A stretch of DNA of 64,000 bases from Alphaproteobacteria bacterium (GCA_050175015.1 JBFXJJ010000006.1:85716-149715); one strand, 5' to 3'; shown: positions 51,556-59,012, counted from the first letter of the stretch. A program made the numbers and translations. Notes: generated from the letters alone by a model not told the origin.

Positions 51556-52096
51556 AAAAACTCCTATTGATGGCGTTTTCATTGCCACAACCTCACCTTT
51601 TATTGATAACCGTGGAGCTTTTGCCAGACTATTTTGCGAAAATGATTTAAAACCTGTGATTGGCAAGCGCCATATCGTCCAGATAAATCATTCAAAAACC
51701 AAGACTATTGGTGCTGTTAGAGGAATGCATTTCCAAAAACCACCTTTTGCTGAAATGAAAATGATAAGATGTCTAAAGGGAAAAGTTTTTGATGTTGCCG
51801 TAGATTTAAGAGCTGGCTCAAAAACTTTTTTAAAGCATTACGCCTTGGAATTAAACCCTGAGAACAGCAAAATGATAATAATACCTGAAGGATTTGCCCA
51901 CGGTTTTCAGGTGTTGGAAGAAGACAGTGAACTTTTATACCTCCACACCGAGTTTTATAATAAAGATTATGAAGATGGTCTTTCTTATGCCGACCCTCTT
52001 CTTAATATTAAATGGCCTATACCAATTAAAGATTTATCTGACAGGGATAAAAATCACCAACTTATAACCCCAAGTTTTACAGGAATAGAAATATGA
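51545..52096 (+). CDS. rfbC: NDP-4-keto-6-deoxyglucose 3,5-epimerase (RmlC family)
   Basis: DNRG.F.R, RGMHFQ, DVAVDLR.GS.TF, IPEGFAHGFQ.L. Confidence 0.9.
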   Translation: MNFEKTPIDGVFIATTSPFIDNRGAFARLFCENDLKPVIGKRHIVQINHSKTKTIGAVRGMHFQKPPFAEMKMIRCLKGKVFDVAVDLRAGSKTFLKHYALELNPENSKMIIIPEGFAHGFQVLEEDSELLYLHTEFYNKDYEDGLSYADPLLNIKWPIPIKDLSDRDKNHQLITPSFTGIEI

Positions 52097-53316
52097 AATG
52101 TCGTCATTGCCATCAAGAACTGGAACATATTTTTTTAGATTTAGGCTTTGCTCCTCCTTCTAATGCTTACTTAAAAAAAGAAGATTTAAGCAAACCTGAA
52201 CGCTACTTTCCTTTAAATATAAAAGTATGCTCTAATTGCTGGCTGGTGCAAACCGAAGATTATGCTGATGCCGACGAATTGTTTGATGCCGAATATGCTT
52301 ATTTTTCCTCAACATCACAAGGCTGGCTGAACCACGCCAAACAATACTGCGATATGATAACCAATAAGCTTAATCTCAACGAAAACAGCTTGGCCGTAGA
52401 AGTAGCCTCAAATGATGGTTATCTTCTAAAGAACTTTGTCGAGGCAGGCATTCCTTGTCTGGGGATTGAACCAACGAAAAGCACTGCCGATGCTTCCAAA
52501 AAACTAAACATTCCTGTTGTTGAAGAATTTTTTGGCGAAAACCTTGCTATCTACTTAATTAGTAGAGGTAAAAAAGCTGATTTGATTATCGGCAACAATG
52601 TTTACGCTCACGTTCCAGACATTAATGACTTTACCAAAGGCTTAAAAATATTATTAAAAGATGACGGCGTGATAACTCTTGAATTTCCACATCTTTTAAA
52701 CCTTATCAATTTAAACCAATTTGATACAGTCTATCACGAACATTATTCTTATTTATCCTTAGGAGCAGTATCTGCTATTTTTCAAAAACAAGGATTAAAA
52801 GTTTTTGATGTCGAAAAACTGCCAACTCATGGTGGAAGCCTGCGTGTTTATGGCTGTCATAATGATTGCCCCAAAGATGTTTCAAATGCAGTCAAAGAAT
52901 GTCTTAAAGAAGAAATTGCAGGCGGTTTGCAACAGCTTGAAACTTATAAAGCATTTCAGCTTAAAGCTAATAAAATAAAAAATGATTTAGTTAAATTTTT
53001 GATTGATTGTAATGAACAAAACAAAAAAGTTGCCGCCTATGGTGCTGCGGCAAAAGGGAACACACTTCTTAATTATGGCGGGGTAAAAACAGATTTGCTG
53101 CCTTTTGTGTGTGATGCCGCGCCATCAAAACAGAATAAATATATGCCCGCCAGCCATATTCCAATATTAGCTCCAGAGGCTATTAAAGAATACAAACCCG
53201 ATTATGTTGTTATTCTGCCTTGGAATATTGCCGAAGAAGTAACAAATAAGTTATCTTATATTAAAGAATGGGGCGGAAAATTTGTAACAGCGGTTCCTGA
53301 ACTAAAGGTTTGGTAG
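52093..53316 (+). CDS. NDP-sugar C-methyltransferase (SAM-dependent, Zn-binding)
   Basis: CRHC...C..C.LVQ, EVASNDGYLL, GNNVYAHVP, YHEHYSY, HGGSLR, YGAAAKGNT. Confidence 0.9.
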   Translation: MKCRHCHQELEHIFLDLGFAPPSNAYLKKEDLSKPERYFPLNIKVCSNCWLVQTEDYADADELFDAEYAYFSSTSQGWLNHAKQYCDMITNKLNLNENSLAVEVASNDGYLLKNFVEAGIPCLGIEPTKSTADASKKLNIPVVEEFFGENLAIYLISRGKKADLIIGNNVYAHVPDINDFTKGLKILLKDDGVITLEFPHLLNLINLNQFDTVYHEHYSYLSLGAVSAIFQKQGLKVFDVEKLPTHGGSLRVYGCHNDCPKDVSNAVKECLKEEIAGGLQQLETYKAFQLKANKIKNDLVKFLIDCNEQNKKVAAYGAAAKGNTLLNYGGVKTDLLPFVCDAAPSKQNKYMPASHIPILAPEAIKEYKPDYVVILPWNIAEEVTNKLSYIKEWGGKFVTAVPELKVW

Positions 53317-53362
53317 AACGTTAGAATAAAATGCAACAATATTATTAAAAGTCAGGCTTGAT

Positions 53363-54205
53363 ATGAAAGTTTTAGTAACTGGTGCAACGGGATTTATTGG
53401 CAGACATCTAATAACCGAACTTTTAAAAAACAATCATCACGTTATTGCAACCGCACTTGATGACAGCAATCTTAAAACGATGCCTTGGAATAAAGAGGTT
53501 GAGTTCAAAGCTTGCGATTTAACTAATACTGACCTTACTTTTGCTGATTATTTTGGCATTCCAGATGCTTTAATTCATCTGGCTTGGGCGGGTCTTCCTA
53601 ATTATAAAGACCTTTTCCATTTTGAAAAAAACCTTCCTCAGTCTTATGACTTCATTAAACAAATGGTAAAATCTGGCTGCAAACAAGTTATGATTACAGG
53701 AACTTGCTTTGAATATGGTATGCAGGAAGGCTGTCTTAATGAGGATATGCCAACAAAACCATCTAATCCTTATGGTCTTGCCAAAGATGTTTTAAGACGT
53801 TTTTTAATGGAACTGCAAAAAAAAGAACCTTTCACCCTTAAATGGGTAAGACTTTTTTATCTTTATGGCTATGGTCAAAGTCCAAAAAGCATTTTATCTC
53901 AATTAGATAAAGCTATCAGTGATGGTGATAAAACGTTTAATATGTCTGGTGGTGAGCAGCTAAGAGACTATCTTCCTATAGAAACGGTTGCTTATAATAT
54001 GGTTAAAATTTTAGAGCATAAGAGCTTTGACGGCATAGTTAACTGCTGTAGCGGCTCGCCCATATCCATCAAAGATTTGGTTGCATCTCATATCGCAGAA
54101 AAAAATTCTGATATAAAACCTAATCTTGGTTTTTATCCTTATCCTGATTATGAACCAATGACTTTTTGGGGCGATAATACCAAATTACAAGGATTACTTA
54201 AATGA
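53363..54205 (+). CDS. NAD-dependent epimerase/4-reductase
   Basis: TGATGFIG, HLAW, TGTCFEYG, YGLAK, RLFYLYG. Confidence 0.88.
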   Translation: MKVLVTGATGFIGRHLITELLKNNHHVIATALDDSNLKTMPWNKEVEFKACDLTNTDLTFADYFGIPDALIHLAWAGLPNYKDLFHFEKNLPQSYDFIKQMVKSGCKQVMITGTCFEYGMQEGCLNEDMPTKPSNPYGLAKDVLRRFLMELQKKEPFTLKWVRLFYLYGYGQSPKSILSQLDKAISDGDKTFNMSGGEQLRDYLPIETVAYNMVKILEHKSFDGIVNCCSGSPISIKDLVASHIAEKNSDIKPNLGFYPYPDYEPMTFWGDNTKLQGLLK

Positions 54206-54780
54206 GATTATTTAAGAAAAAAAACAAAGCTAAATCTAACCCCTATATAACAATTGGCAGACATACTTATGGCGTTGAAAATGACACCATTTTCAATCCT
54301 TCGGCTAAAGCTCCTGTAACTATCGGCAATTTTTGTTCTTTTGCCAAAGGAGCTGTTATTTTAGCTCACGGCGATCACCCTTTAAATCTGCCGTCAACGT
54401 TTCCTTTTAAAACTCTTATGTTTCAAGCAACCCCGATTACAAACTATGATGCAATAACCAAAGGTGCGGTAAATATTGGACACGATGTCTGGGTCTGCCG
54501 CAATGCGGTTATATTGTCAGGAGTAACCATTGGAACAGGCGCCGTTATAGGAGCTGGCGCTGTTGTAAGCAAAGATGTTCCGCCTTATGCTATTGTCTGC
54601 GGCAATCCTGCTGAAATCATAAAATACCGCTTTGATGAAAACACCATAAAAGAACTACTTGATTCTAAGTGGTGGCTTTTGCCAGATAATGCCATCAAAA
54701 CTTTGGAAAAAGAATTATATCAAACTGATATTAAAGCCTTTATCGCCGCTGTAAAAAATTGGGAAAGGGAAAACAAATAA
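54202..54780 (+). CDS. CatB/Vat-like hexapeptide O-acetyltransferase
   Basis: IGNFCS, STFPF, IGHDVW...A.ILSGVTIG.GAVIGAGAVVSKDVPPYAIV.GNPA...KYRF. Confidence 0.9.
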   Translation: MRLFKKKNKAKSNPYITIGRHTYGVENDTIFNPSAKAPVTIGNFCSFAKGAVILAHGDHPLNLPSTFPFKTLMFQATPITNYDAITKGAVNIGHDVWVCRNAVILSGVTIGTGAVIGAGAVVSKDVPPYAIVCGNPAEIIKYRFDENTIKELLDSKWWLLPDNAIKTLEKELYQTDIKAFIAAVKNWERENK

Positions 54781-54781
54781 T

Positions 54782-55627
54782 ATGGCAAAAGTTACGGTTG
54801 GACTTCCTGTTTATAATGGCGATAAATACTTGGATAAGGCTCTAGAATCATTATGCTGTCAAAGCTTTGACGATTTTGAAATTTTAATCTCTGATAACGC
54901 CTCGACAGATAAAACCCCTGATATTATTTCTAAGTGGCAAGAACAAAGCTCCAAAATAAAGTATTTCCGCCAAAATGAGAATCTCGGAATGGTTGGCAAC
55001 TTTGACTGGGTTTTTAACAATGCCTCATCACCGTTTTTTATCTTGGCGGCTCACGATGATCTCTGGTCAAAAGATTATGTAAAAGAACTCTATGAAACAA
55101 TGGTCAGTAATGATGGCTGCCTCTTAGCTGTACCCAAGGTTATTAAAACTAATCCTGATGGCAGTGAAAATTTAGTAACCCCTTTTAATGACAGAATTGA
55201 TGAATATAAAGGCACCAAAAGAGTAAAAAAACTTTTGCGCTGGGCTCAAAGCGGCTGGGTTTATGGCATCTTTAATAAAGAAGAGCTGATAAAAGCTAAT
55301 AAGGCAACCAAAGTTTATGGTTTTGCTTGGGGAAACGAATTTATTACTATGCTGCCTTTTTTATTGTCAGGAAAAGTTTTTGGTAACAACAACGCTATTT
55401 ATTACCAAAGACAAACAGGGCTTTCGGAAGATAGATACAAACCTAAAAATTTAAAAGAGCAGTATAAGCTTTATAAATCTTTTTTAAGAGAAAGCTTAAA
55501 CATTCTCAAAACATCAAAGCATTCGGCAATAGCTAAAGCCAGACTGTTTTTTGCTATTTTAAAATATACCGATAAACACGCTTGGAAAATAAGAAGACTT
55601 ATCCGCTCTCTTGTTTTTTTCAAGTAA
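54782..55627 (+). CDS. Glycosyltransferase family 2
   Basis: VGLPVYNG, ISDNASTD, ENLG...NF, AAHDD.W. Confidence 0.9.
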   Translation: MAKVTVGLPVYNGDKYLDKALESLCCQSFDDFEILISDNASTDKTPDIISKWQEQSSKIKYFRQNENLGMVGNFDWVFNNASSPFFILAAHDDLWSKDYVKELYETMVSNDGCLLAVPKVIKTNPDGSENLVTPFNDRIDEYKGTKRVKKLLRWAQSGWVYGIFNKEELIKANKATKVYGFAWGNEFITMLPFLLSGKVFGNNNAIYYQRQTGLSEDRYKPKNLKEQYKLYKSFLRESLNILKTSKHSAIAKARLFFAILKYTDKHAWKIRRLIRSLVFFK

Positions 55628-56038
55628 TGTTATCTGTCATATGGCAGTCAAAAAAATTGCCTTGCGAATCAATGCCTTTTAAAAAAACAATCTTTAAAAA
55701 AAGAAAACCGTTGTTTTTAGAGCATTGTGCATTTAATTGTACGCACCTTTTTATTTTGCCTTACGGCAAATGTCTGCCGACAGCTTTGCTTTTATAAAAG
55801 CAAAGGCAAAACTTTTATTATTCTTAACTCTTTTTGTAAACAAAGATTTGAAAGTAATAAAAATAGTTTTTTGAGATTGCTAAGGATTTTTTTTACAAAA
55901 AAAATCTTAGTTTGCGTAAGCAAATTTTTAAATAAAGCGATTCTATTTAAAGGAACATTGCTTTTAAAAATGCAATTACCTGTTTCTAAAAAAACATTTC
56001 TTAAAAACAGGTAATTATAGCAATTTATATTTCTAATA

Positions 56039-57064
56039 TTATGAAGCGCAGATGTGTTTTAATGGCTCAACTTGCTCGGTTGAATGATAAATGCCATGGC
56101 GCTCCAAAGACGCCGTTACAATCCTTTTTATCAATTCATTAAAAGTCATGCCTGTCATATTAGCCATAATAACTAAATCTGAACGAGTAGGATTAAGCCC
56201 TGCTAAAGGATTTACTTCAAGAAAATGAGGTATCCCATATTTATCAGATCTCAAATCAACCCTGCCGCCGTCTCTACAGTCAAGAAGCCTCCAAGCATCT
56301 AAAGCGGTTTTGGCTGCAAGCTGTGCTTCGGGGTCATCGACCAAACGATAAGTCACTCTATCTTCATATTTTTCCTTATTTTCATAAGAATAGCCTATGG
56401 CGTCAGCTTTTTTACCTAAGATAATTTCCATAACTCCGATAACTTGAGCTTTTTCACCATTACCAACAACGCCAACAGTGAACTCACGACCTTCAAGATA
56501 AGATTCAACAATTACTGGCTGGTTAAACCTTTTTAAAAGCTTAGCGCAAGTTCTAATAAGCTGTTTGCTGTTCTTGACACAAGATGCCGAATTAATACCT
56601 TTACCGGTTCCCTCAGCAACAGGTTTTACAAAAACAGGAAAATTTAAATTAACCTTTTTAGCATCGTCCATCGTCTTAACGACTTCAAACTTTGCGGTAC
56701 TGACATTGTGGTCGCATAAAATCCTTTTGGTAAGACCTTTATCAAGGCAAACCGCCAAAGTTAATGGCGATGAAAAACAAAAAGGAATATCATAAGCCTC
56801 CAAAAGAGCTGGCACAACAGATTCCCTAGCTCCTCCTCTAAGTCCTTCACAGATATTAAAAACAAAGTCCCAGCGATTGCCGATAGCTAAGTTTCTAACT
56901 AACTGCTGAACATTTCCAATTCTCTCAACTTCGAACCCCATATTTTCAAGAGCTGAAGTAATCCCGTCAATAGTTTCTGGGCAGTCAAATTCTGCCGTTT
57001 CTTCTTTTGTGTAACCTTTTGCAAGATAATCATTACGAAGGTCATAAGTAAAGCCTATACGCAT
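56039..57064 (-). CDS. Ddl-like ATP-grasp ligase (not a canonical D-Ala-D-Ala ligase)
   Basis: FNICEG..G..RES, CLDK, FVKPVAEGTGKGI, YLEGREFTVG, GRVD.R, EVNPLAGL; lacks the Ddl motifs GG.S.EH and LHG..GEDG. Confidence 0.88.
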   Translation of the reverse strand: MRIGFTYDLRNDYLAKGYTKEETAEFDCPETIDGITSALENMGFEVERIGNVQQLVRNLAIGNRWDFVFNICEGLRGGARESVVPALLEAYDIPFCFSSPLTLAVCLDKGLTKRILCDHNVSTAKFEVVKTMDDAKKVNLNFPVFVKPVAEGTGKGINSASCVKNSKQLIRTCAKLLKRFNQPVIVESYLEGREFTVGVVGNGEKAQVIGVMEIILGKKADAIGYSYENKEKYEDRVTYRLVDDPEAQLAAKTALDAWRLLDCRDGGRVDLRSDKYGIPHFLEVNPLAGLNPTRSDLVIMANMTGMTFNELIKRIVTASLERHGIYHSTEQVEPLKHICAS

Positions 57065-57076
57065 TTTGCACCTAAA

Positions 57077-57418
57077 TTAAGCTATATGTTTGATTGTTAA
57101 TAAGAACATAAAAATAGCCCCATGCAACAAAACCCGACTGACTAATCGGGCTTTTTTAAACAAGAGGCTACAAATATTGACATTTTGGGATCTAAAATAC
57201 TTACTAGGAAAGCATTTGATTGAACCAAATACATTCCAATATAAATACGTTAGCTCGTAAATTATTTTATGAGAAAATTTACTGTAGAAAACAGATTTTT
57301 CTGTCGATTTAATCCTAGCAAAGTCTGGAGGTTCTATATCGCCAGAGTCTGGAGGTTCTTCTTCAGAAGACTCACACTGCGGAGGCTCTCCATCTGACAT
57401 CGAAACCATATCTTCCAT
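57077..57418 (-). CDS. Short ORF with a triple acidic EPP repeat (putative leader or precursor peptide)
   Basis: MEDMVSMSDGEPPQCESSEEEPPDSGDIEPPDF...; AGGA upstream of the start; stops 12 nt before the ATP-grasp start. The C-terminal half looks less protein-like. Confidence 0.5.
   Translation of the reverse strand: MEDMVSMSDGEPPQCESSEEEPPDSGDIEPPDFARIKSTEKSVFYSKFSHKIIYELTYLYWNVFGSIKCFPSKYFRSQNVNICSLLFKKARLVSRVLLHGAIFMFLLTIKHIA
57129..57157. terminator. Terminator-like hairpin inside the EPP ORF, upstream of the ATP-grasp gene
   Basis: aaaa-cccga-ctgactaa-tcggg-ctttttt; the minus strand reads GCCCGA..TCGGGT-TTTGTT. Confidence 0.5.
57322..57389 (-). repeat. Direct repeats encoding EPP(D)
   Basis: agtctggaggttct at 57322-57335 and 57346-57359 (exact, 14 bp), plus degenerate tgcggaggctct at 57378-57389. 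Confidence 0.8.
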
Positions 57419-57526
57419 AATAAAAAAAGTATCCTAATAAAATAGTTAATTACTTTAAAAAAATATTTAGCATAACGATATTTTTATACTATATATAAAA
57501 AAACATTATACACAAAAAAAAGCAAA

Positions 57527-58534
57527 ATGATAATGAACTTTGTAAATAATTCTAAAAATATTATTATTGTTCACGGTGCAGATGAAGAGCGTCTTACAAA
57601 AGATGAAGAGGACACTATTAATCAGGCTTTGGAAATAAAAGAGACGGTAAATAAAATAGGATTAAATGCTGATATTTATAACCTTAAAATACCGTTCAAA
57701 AAAAATATGAACCACTTAAAAAATGGTTCTCATCATTTAATTTTCAACCTTGTTGAAGCTATTAAAGGTAAAGGAAAATATTCCCATCTAGCACCAGCAC
57801 TGTTTGATAAAATGCAGATTCCTTATACTGGGAATAACAGCAATGCGATTAGAATAACCTCCAACAAAATTCTAACAAAAGAAATTTTAAACCAAAACAA
57901 TATCCCGACTCCTCATTGGCTTTATGGCGACGATGTTGAGGAATTTGACTCTCCATATATTGTCAAATCTGTTACAGAAGATGCATCAATCGGTATCGAT
58001 ATGAATTCTGTCGTCTACAGTAAAAGTGAAATGCAGAATTTAATAATAGATAAAACTAATACCTTTGGAGGAAGATGGTTTGCTGAACAGTATATCGACG
58101 GCAGAGAATTTAATATTTCCATCTTAGAACAAGACGGAAATCCATTTGTTATGCCGTGCGCAGAAATCGTTTTTGACAGCGTCTATAACAACCATCATAA
58201 AATAGTTGACTATGCCTCAAAATGGGAAGAAAACAGTGTATTTTATAAAGCAAGCCGTAGAGTATTCCCTGAAGAAGAACGTGTTTTGTTTGATAAACTT
58301 CGGGAAATATGTATCAAATGCTGGAAAATATTTGGTCTTTCAGGATACGCCAGAATTGACTTCAGAGTAGATAAAAACGAAAATCCTCTAGTTTTAGAAA
58401 TAAACACAAATCCTTGCCTTGCTCAAGACGCAGGTTTTGCACAAGCCTGTCTTCAAAAAGGAATTGAATACCACAATTTGATAAGATATATTTTAAAATC
58501 TGCAACTTTTTCAAAGGAAAAAACAAATGAGTAG
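57527..58534 (+). CDS. Second Ddl-like ATP-grasp ligase
   Basis: FNLVEA, PYTG, IVKS..EDAS.GID, YIDGREFNI, YASKW, GYARIDFR, LEINTNPCL. Confidence 0.88.
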   Translation: MIMNFVNNSKNIIIVHGADEERLTKDEEDTINQALEIKETVNKIGLNADIYNLKIPFKKNMNHLKNGSHHLIFNLVEAIKGKGKYSHLAPALFDKMQIPYTGNNSNAIRITSNKILTKEILNQNNIPTPHWLYGDDVEEFDSPYIVKSVTEDASIGIDMNSVVYSKSEMQNLIIDKTNTFGGRWFAEQYIDGREFNISILEQDGNPFVMPCAEIVFDSVYNNHHKIVDYASKWEENSVFYKASRRVFPEEERVLFDKLREICIKCWKIFGLSGYARIDFRVDKNENPLVLEINTNPCLAQDAGFAQACLQKGIEYHNLIRYILKSATFSKEKTNE

Positions 58535-59012
58535 CGAGATTTATCTTCGTACTAATATCAAAAAAACTGATGCTGAAGACATTGCCAATATAATTGCTAA
58601 AACTGGGGTATTCATAGATGAAGATGTTCTTCTTGCTAAAGAAGTCGCAGATGAAACTATTGAAAAAGGCAGCGAAGCTGGATATGGTTTTGTCTTTGCC
58701 GAAGTCGACGGTAAAGTTGTAGGTTATAGCTGCTATGGCGATATTCCAACTACCGAAAATCGTTATGACCTATATTGGATAGCCGTACTTCCTGAGTTTC
58801 AAAAGCAACATATCGGTTCCAAAATTTTAAAATATACCGAAGAAATTATCGCCTCAATAAACGGTAAACATATTTATATTGAAACATCATCAACTTCTAA
58901 GTTTGAAAAAACTAGAAAATTTTACATAAAAAACAATTATACTGAAGCTGTTGTTTTAGATGACTTTTTCCGTGATGGTGATGGCAAAGTTATATACGTC
59001 AAAAAATTCTAA
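58527..59012 (+). CDS. GNAT N-acetyltransferase coupled to the ATP-grasp gene
   Basis: GY.CYG.IP.T...YDLYWIAV, ETSS...TR.FY, DFF.DGDGK; overlaps the ATP-grasp stop. Confidence 0.9.
   Translation: MSSEIYLRTNIKKTDAEDIANIIAKTGVFIDEDVLLAKEVADETIEKGSEAGYGFVFAEVDGKVVGYSCYGDIPTTENRYDLYWIAVLPEFQKQHIGSKILKYTEEIIASINGKHIYIETSSTSKFEKTRKFYIKNNYTEAVVLDDFFRDGDGKVIYVKKF

Follow-up and report, generated by a model that had tools for sequence, protein, structure and literature searches.

A leader frame with three EPP motifs and an internal terminator-like hairpin in the kamA position of an ATP-grasp ligase cassette: a candidate translation-coupled attenuator

The window, a 64,000-nt stretch of DNA from an alphaproteobacterium, encodes two ATP-grasp ligases (graspA and graspB) and a GNAT acetyltransferase, with graspA and the genes graspB-GNAT on opposite sides of a low-GC spacer (Table 1). 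Both ligases match PF07478 and Ddl NCBIfam models. Directly 5' of graspA, on the same strand, lies a short open reading frame (P0001) that spans a terminator-like hairpin. Upstream of the cassette, at 52093-55627 (plus strand), the window carries a run of sugar-modification genes, which encode a C-methyltransferase, an NAD-dependent epimerase, a hexapeptide transferase and a family 2 glycosyltransferase. A literature search found no description of the gene cassette, its head or its leader.

Table 1. Features of the leader-graspA / graspB-GNAT region of the window, and decayed or interrupted homologues in other loci
Feature	Position	Strand	Description
Long-stem terminator-like hairpin	55973..56017	minus	just 3' of graspA; stem up to 20 pairs, then T-run; 21-24% GC stretch
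graspA (P0002)	56039..57064	minus	Ddl-like ATP-grasp ligase, 341 residues, intact
Spacer, P0001 stop to graspA ATG	57065..57076	minus	12 nt; contains graspA ribosome-binding site AGGTG
Leader ORF P0001	57077..57418	minus	113 codons; codons 1-14 = conserved cassette head; codons 36-113 AT-rich, poor coding score
Terminator-like hairpin	57114..57171	minus	in P0001, about codons 83-102; inner stem 57157-57129, then UUUUGUUG; outer 8-bp stem around inner
Three EPP motifs	57323..57388	minus	EPPQ 57388-57377, EPPD 57358-57347, EPPD 57334-57323
Low-GC spacer	57419..57526	.	15-17% GC; promoter-like sites on both strands; likely inversion joint, leader-graspA / graspB-GNAT
graspB (P0003)	57527..58534	plus	second Ddl-like ATP-grasp ligase; strand opposite to graspA here
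GNAT acetyltransferase (P0004)	58527..59012	plus	overlaps graspB end
Homologues with in-frame stops	L050 833-1798, 1824-2783; L026 3776-4741; L072 G055:C53:1999-2991		

P0001 has the N-terminus MEDMVSMSDGEPPQCESSEEEPPDSGDIEPPD; its translation begins, at greater length, MEDMVSMSDGEPPQCESSEEEPPDSGDIEPPDFARIK..., and its head in the form used for comparison is MEDMVSMSDGEPPQ. The three EPP motifs occupy codons 11-13, 21-23 and 29-31, and every one is encoded GAR CCT CCN. They are held by a 17-nt unit with copies at 57319, 57343 and 57373, two of which share an exact 14-mer, and the spacings of 24 and 30 nt keep the copies in frame. The three motifs are a product of DNA duplication and hence do not count as three independent events. 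The stop codon is TAA (57079-57077) and the graspA ATG follows at 57064. The original prediction had described a triple-EPP ORF with an exact 14-bp repeat that reads through a hairpin and stops 12 nt before the ATP-grasp start, and each of these features was confirmed. Upstream of the P0001 ATG at 57418, the sequence AGGA is weak and distant as a ribosome-binding site. A promoter-like site on the plus strand (57394-57421) overlaps the start of the frame.

The motif cluster stands out in its genome. EPP[DQE] occurs as a cluster in P0001 and nowhere else in the six frames of the 2.53-Mb genome, and of 3476 genome ORFs nine have [ED]PP within their first 35 residues, P0001 being the one with two or more. 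Codons 1-35 form an island of 48-49% GC in a genome of 35.5% GC and have a coding score of 0.63 (gene mean 0.38). Codons 36-113 (29% GC) score -0.10, under the 5th percentile of real genes. They are free of stops in just 62 of 20,000 dinucleotide shuffles, and codons 65-113 in 703 of 20,000, while the remaining five frames over this tail have 3-10 stops each.

Searches for relatives of the whole frame returned little. A phmmer search against 1.84 billion representative proteins retrieved P0001 and no other protein, and comparison with Pfam and NCBIfam gave no match. The region 57065-57526 has no further copy in the genome, unlike repeated or mobile DNA, and a DNA comparison with 40 relatives turned up no homologous region, its three weak matches being short and AT-rich. 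A predicted complex of graspA, graspB and P0001 residues 1-60 scored 0.01, a value that is not evidence either way.

The hairpin within P0001 resembles an intrinsic terminator, with a GC-rich stem of eight pairs, a tetraloop and the run UUUUGUUG on the minus strand, 5' of graspA. The minus-strand RNA from 57175 to 57110 folds at -28.6 kcal/mol (z = -6.4), and none of 200 shuffled sequences is as stable. The plus strand of this region reaches only -14.2 kcal/mol, so that the fold is much weaker on the strand opposite the ORF. No promoter-like site was predicted in the stretch from the hairpin to graspA, and a search of Rfam 15 over positions 55800-57800 of the window returned nothing relevant.

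To place the locus in context we compared 83 loci with a graspA homologue (46-64% identical); species genomes and metagenomes supplied 29 each, and 400 same-class genomes the other 25. Every locus with enough downstream DNA has graspA, graspB and the GNAT gene in that order on one strand. The divergent layout of graspA against graspB-GNAT is peculiar to the window among the loci examined, and this points to an inversion of graspA relative to graspB-GNAT. The upstream DNA reaches at least 1300 nt in 67 loci. Of these, 50 have kamA immediately 5' of graspA on the same strand, two have it one gene away and 15 lack it. The upstream gene of L012 scores 349.6 bits against TIGR00238 (cut-off 199.2). 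The resulting kamA-graspA-graspB-GNAT cassette is widespread across many phyla and is uncharacterised. Compared with this usual form, the window keeps graspA, graspB and GNAT, has graspA inverted and lacks the kamA body, and P0001 occupies the kamA position. Some graspA or graspB homologues carry in-frame stops (one each in graspA and graspB of L050, one in L026 and four in L072), which could be signs of decayed cassettes, sequencing errors or another genetic code.

The first 14 codons of P0001 match a head, M-[DE]-[DE]-R-x-[SA]-x-[DE]-x-E-P-P-S, that in other genomes is the opening of the first ORF of the cassette. This head is about 14 codons long and consists of an acidic stretch and E-P-P-S/D/Q around codons 11-13, encoded as CCU-CCN in the window and as CCU-CCN-AGU elsewhere. 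Cassette KamA proteins begin in the same way, with an acidic stretch and then xPPS/D about 10-13 residues from the start, as in MEDRMSLDTEPPS (L088), MDDRLSIESEPPS (L077), MDDLEAAQSEPPD (L073) and MPNDAEQPPST (L075). The motif [EDQHRK]PP[SDQP] is found in 27 of 44 distinct KamA N-termini, PP[SD] in 26 and [ED]PP in 19, which bears out the earlier claim that KamA genes leading this ligase operon often carry EEPP-like motifs at their N-terminus. The 17 N-termini without a Pro-Pro motif belong mostly to one clade starting MTAHTIF. Within KamA the head motif occurs twice in L055 and L068 and three times in L081.

P0001 agrees with the KamA head in both sequence and spacing. Its E11-P12-P13 falls at the same position as in L068 and in the stand-alone leader ORFs described below, and its motifs end in Q or D, in contrast to the AGU-encoded Ser found elsewhere. 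In a tblastn comparison of the L081 KamA with the 561-nt region, residues 26-65 aligned to P0001 residues 8-49 in the frame of P0001 (28.9 bits, E 2e-5, a value obtained in a tiny search space with composition correction off). HMMs of the head rank P0001 142-173 of 19741 genome ORFs, which corresponds to about p = 0.008 for a place chosen beforehand; the genome-wide E of about 200 is not significant, so it is only the rank at this a priori place that counts. With an earlier head HMM, built before the same-class loci joined the set, the rank was 582 of 19741.

The likeness to KamA is confined to the head. Neither tblastn nor a full-length KamA HMM run over six frames of 57040-57540 detected any beyond it, P0001 comes only 6641st of 19741 with an HMM built on the core-adjacent segment of KamA, and the frame has no radical SAM core (TIGR00238, WNDWRWQ region). 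The original prediction had raised the possibility that P0001 is the retained N-terminus of a deleted kamA. Its position and the graspA tree (see below) make descent from kamA plausible, but the sequence past the head is unlike KamA.

A survey of the regions upstream of homologous ligases, which the original prediction had proposed, found EPP-bearing heads in stand-alone ORFs as well as in KamA N-termini. Thirteen of the 15 loci without kamA have, 122-277 nt 5' of graspA, a short ORF that begins with this head, here with the form M-x-[EA]-R-[LP]-A-[RP]-E-[DE]-x-E-P-P-S. These 13 loci share an invariant ATG and invariant codons GAG CCT CCC AGT. A terminator, GCCGGC-UUU-GCCGGC with a U-run, is nearly invariant too, the exceptions being one leader with G-U in one stem pair and one with C inside the U-run. 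The leaders have 54-73 codons, the terminator starts at codon 32-41, and the frame ends 9-31 nt beyond the graspA ATG and so overlaps the graspA start. The distance from ATG to ATG is 2 mod 3 in 12 of the 13 loci, covering six of seven distinct lengths. In DNA of 65% GC, open frames come cheaply. P0001 is twice as long as these leaders and, unlike them, stops short of the graspA ATG.

Past the head, the stand-alone leader peptides are not conserved, and the stretch between motif and terminator is unalignable between leader groups. Gene callers seldom report them, with two database proteins, both unnamed. Rfam 15 gave no match at the gathering score in any of the 13 leader loci, nor for the L010 leader at E up to 10. 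In the leaders RNAalifold also proposes a long-range helix (alignment A3, columns 45-50 / 214-220) in which four pairs change on both sides; it joins bases just 5' of the leader Shine-Dalgarno to bases just 3' of the terminator U-run. In five of five leader-type genomes (G401-G405, with loci L010, L014, L017, L027 and L032), whose assemblies may be incomplete, no KamA-family gene was found anywhere, which raises the possibility that the ligase pair works without a beta-amino acid made by KamA.

Conservation of the motif extends to its codons. The first Pro is CCT in 29 of 33 GC-rich loci (13/13 leaders and 16/20 KamA heads) and the motif Ser is AGT in 13/13 leaders and 14/17 KamA heads, although these counts run over related loci and overstate independence. 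In graspA of the same GC-rich loci, CCT makes up 16 of 498 Pro codons (3%) and AGT 11 of 400 Ser codons. The 9-mer CCTCCNAGT tags the kamA head in 19 of 46 loci and is almost absent otherwise from these loci. CCC/U-CCN pairs are described as slow, prone to +1 slippage and mostly avoided (Krafczyk et al., PMC8129111). At the CCU-C of the window, the +1 frame reaches a stop about 16 codons on.

The graspA phylogeny (FastTree) separates the window from the stand-alone leaders. The leader-type loci form one shallow clade (support 0.999, graspA 80-90% identical inside it) and thus count as about one origin. The window falls outside this clade, in groups made up purely of kamA-type loci (supports 0.87-0.89), which suggests that its kamA-less state arose in a separate event. 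The head would then have outlived kamA twice, in both cases followed by a frame that spans a terminator-like hairpin and reaches graspA. We infer that in the window the kamA body was lost separately and the leader-graspA unit was inverted against graspB-GNAT, while the head was kept together with an open frame through the hairpin.

Fragments of related strains are present in run X2, which belongs to another study than the likely source run. One 179-nt contig covers 57318-57471; cover is absent over 57108-57241, the part with the tail and the hairpin. Three changes fall in the head among the listed part of 13 differences, and each affects a third codon position and is synonymous. A GAA indel is aligned with the codons, and indels upstream of the ATG measure 1, 1, 1, 4, 1 and 2 nt.

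The window genome has two further KamA-family genes away from the cassette, in L090 (G000:C13:26000-36000) and L089 (G000:C6:1-6000). One encodes a true lysine 2,3-aminomutase (602.6 bits, cut-off 525.4), whose neighbours, judged from the starts of their ORFs, read as a lysine-fermentation cluster. The second gene encodes an unassigned paralogue of 370 residues that lacks the N-terminal head. We considered the paralogue at C6:2296-3408 as the relocated body of the cassette kamA and found no support for this, as both paralogues lie outside the cassette KamA clade in a quick tree with long branches. Neither reaches the EpmB cut-off (about 235 bits vs 369). The genes for EpmA and EF-P adjoin divergently at G000:C11:35737-36708 (-) and C11:36901-37449 (+) (loci L091 and L095), with EpmA scoring 371 bits (cut-off 286.9). 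EF-P modification in this genome is thus of the beta-lysylation (EpmA) type.

We propose that P0001 is a stand-alone cassette head that acts as a pyrBI-like attenuator sensing translation speed, through EF-P or Pro-tRNA, and we give this reading a probability of about one half. We infer the following steps. Transcription of graspA would start upstream of the leader, so that RNA polymerase must cross the hairpin. A ribosome close behind the polymerase would cover the hairpin arms, suppress termination and come to its stop codon at the graspA ribosome-binding site. A ribosome paused at the three EPP motifs would lag, the hairpin would form and transcription would end. Pausing would be expected if EF-P is weak, if Pro-tRNA is scarce or if a ligand acts on the nascent head, and three motifs would prolong the pause, as runs of regulatory codons do in hisL. 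The translation-coupled attenuator of the original prediction gains comparative support from the 13 of 15 kamA-less loci with a candidate leader.

The closest natural likeness is E. coli pyrBI, where a translated leader frame (pyrL) covers an intrinsic terminator before the structural gene and a close ribosome suppresses the hairpin. The input of pyrBI is RNA polymerase pausing at low UTP, whereas the input here would be pausing of the ribosome. Such an input has been built into pyrL artificially: a PPPPPP site placed 5' of its terminator in the translated frame cut expression 26-fold when EF-P was missing, against less than 2-fold when it was present, as reported by Elgamal et al. 2016 (PMC5021804). 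Polyproline 5' of a hairpin makes readthrough EF-P-dependent in that reporter, a behaviour that for P0001 is a proposal. Unlike the man-made reporter, the leader described here is natural and tied to one gene cassette, and its head is the N-terminus of an enzyme in most genomes.

Other leaders share some of these elements. hisL and trpL likewise combine a leader peptide rich in repeated regulatory codons with a following terminator, and the multiplied EPP parallels their runs of His or Trp. Their frames, however, end ahead of the terminator, and a stalled ribosome switches the operon on by way of an antiterminator, whereas the present frame crosses the terminator and stalling should turn the gene off. 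We found no antiterminator of the trp/his type competing with the terminator 5' arm; eight stand-alone leaders folded with and without the 3' arm gave no consistent partner for the 5' arm, and RNAalifold gave none. Salmonella mgtP and mgtL are short leader ORFs in which proline codons tie expression of the downstream operon to the pace of translation, with a link to EF-P (PMC3641672, PMC5299641, PMC6460261). They act via alternative stem-loops, and they differ from P0001 in having no sequence relation to it and different downstream genes. In CadC, CCU/CCC proline codon pairs within a triproline set pausing strength and hence expression, but there the effect is on the copy number of a single protein, and no terminator takes part (PMC8129111).

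Several other explanations account for part of these data. P0001 could be an inert relic, the decaying 5' end of a deleted kamA in which frame and hairpin are functionless and graspA has a promoter of its own. The poorly scoring tail, the weak Shine-Dalgarno and the lack of relatives in 1.84 billion representative proteins fit such decay, as do the clearly rearranged locus with its unique divergent layout and the existence of other decayed cassettes (four stops in L072, in-frame stops in L050 and L026). Decay sits poorly with a tail that shuffling leaves free of stops so seldom (62/20000) and with a head that stays at 48% GC amid AT-rich DNA. The listed changes in related strains are synonymous and the indel is in frame, a second, independent kamA-less lineage retains head and terminator, and the stretch between hairpin and graspA offers no promoter-like site. 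We consider an inert relic unlikely. The three 17-nt units might instead be operator repeats that bind a transcription factor for divergent promoters, the ORF being incidental. They do lie within a divergent control region, and the plus-strand promoter-like site overlaps the start of the ORF. But their spacings preserve the reading frame, the same motif is coding and multiplied in frame in the KamA genes of L055, L068 and L081, and no regulator gene adjoins the locus, which leaves operator repeats barely credible.

The conserved codons raise the question of whether CCUCC(N)AGU acts as RNA, for example as an anti-Shine-Dalgarno element that pairs with GGAGG-type sites of the leader or of graspA, with the frame secondary. 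CCT and AGT keep their third positions against a strong GC bias, GCCUCC exactly complements the GGAGGC that 8 of 13 leader loci have as part of their graspA ribosome-binding site, and a possible helix GGCUCGG/CCGAGCC takes in the Glu codon. Five of the 13 leader loci nevertheless lack GGAGGC at graspA, the window site AGGTG is a poor partner, the helix shows no covariation and is broken in two sequences, and no Rfam family matches. The ATG is invariant, third-position variation in codons 6, 8 and 9 is conservative in its outcome, and the peptide head is alike in KamA-fused and stand-alone forms despite different DNA, all of which makes a purely RNA-based role improbable. The likeness of the head peptide in both forms would equally suit a protein function, in which the acidic EPP head serves the two ATP-grasp ligases and the GNAT as docking tag, carrier or substrate and persisted as a small protein once KamA was gone. 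Some ATP-grasp systems use an acidic carrier tail, LysW being one. The ligases, however, match D-Ala-D-Ala-ligase models and not RimK or graspetide types, the residues past the head are unconserved, gene callers rarely report the peptides (two unnamed database proteins) and conservation of rare codons is unexpected for a mere tag. The suggestion that the peptide is modified by the ligases and the GNAT, as in a graspetide or RiPP cluster, thus found no support in ligases of the Ddl type and in leaders with no conserved core, and we regard a tag or substrate as very improbable.

Returning to the attenuator, we tentatively extend it to the family as a whole. The head, encoded by the slow, slippery pair CCU-CCN and a rare AGU, may be a natural sensor of translation speed. 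It would work either at the start of the KamA reading frame or, where kamA has been lost, as a leader through a terminator, a form that two lineages reached independently. The cassette KamA is an aminomutase of the beta-lysine type and EF-P in the window genome is of the beta-lysylated (EpmA) kind, and the head could thus make the cassette respond to EF-P or proline status; another possibility is that the nascent head senses a metabolite of the cassette itself. Very few natural attenuators that read ribosome speed at proline pairs have been described, the Salmonella mgt leaders among them, and the design of polyproline plus terminator has otherwise been demonstrated only as an engineered reporter, while here it would be natural and conserved in both peptide and codons. 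If this is true, the leader would be a compact natural reporter of EF-P or prolyl-tRNA status. It would also give a handle on when the cassette is switched on and a clue to its product, and it would mean that the first codons of an enzyme gene can outlast the enzyme as a regulatory leader.
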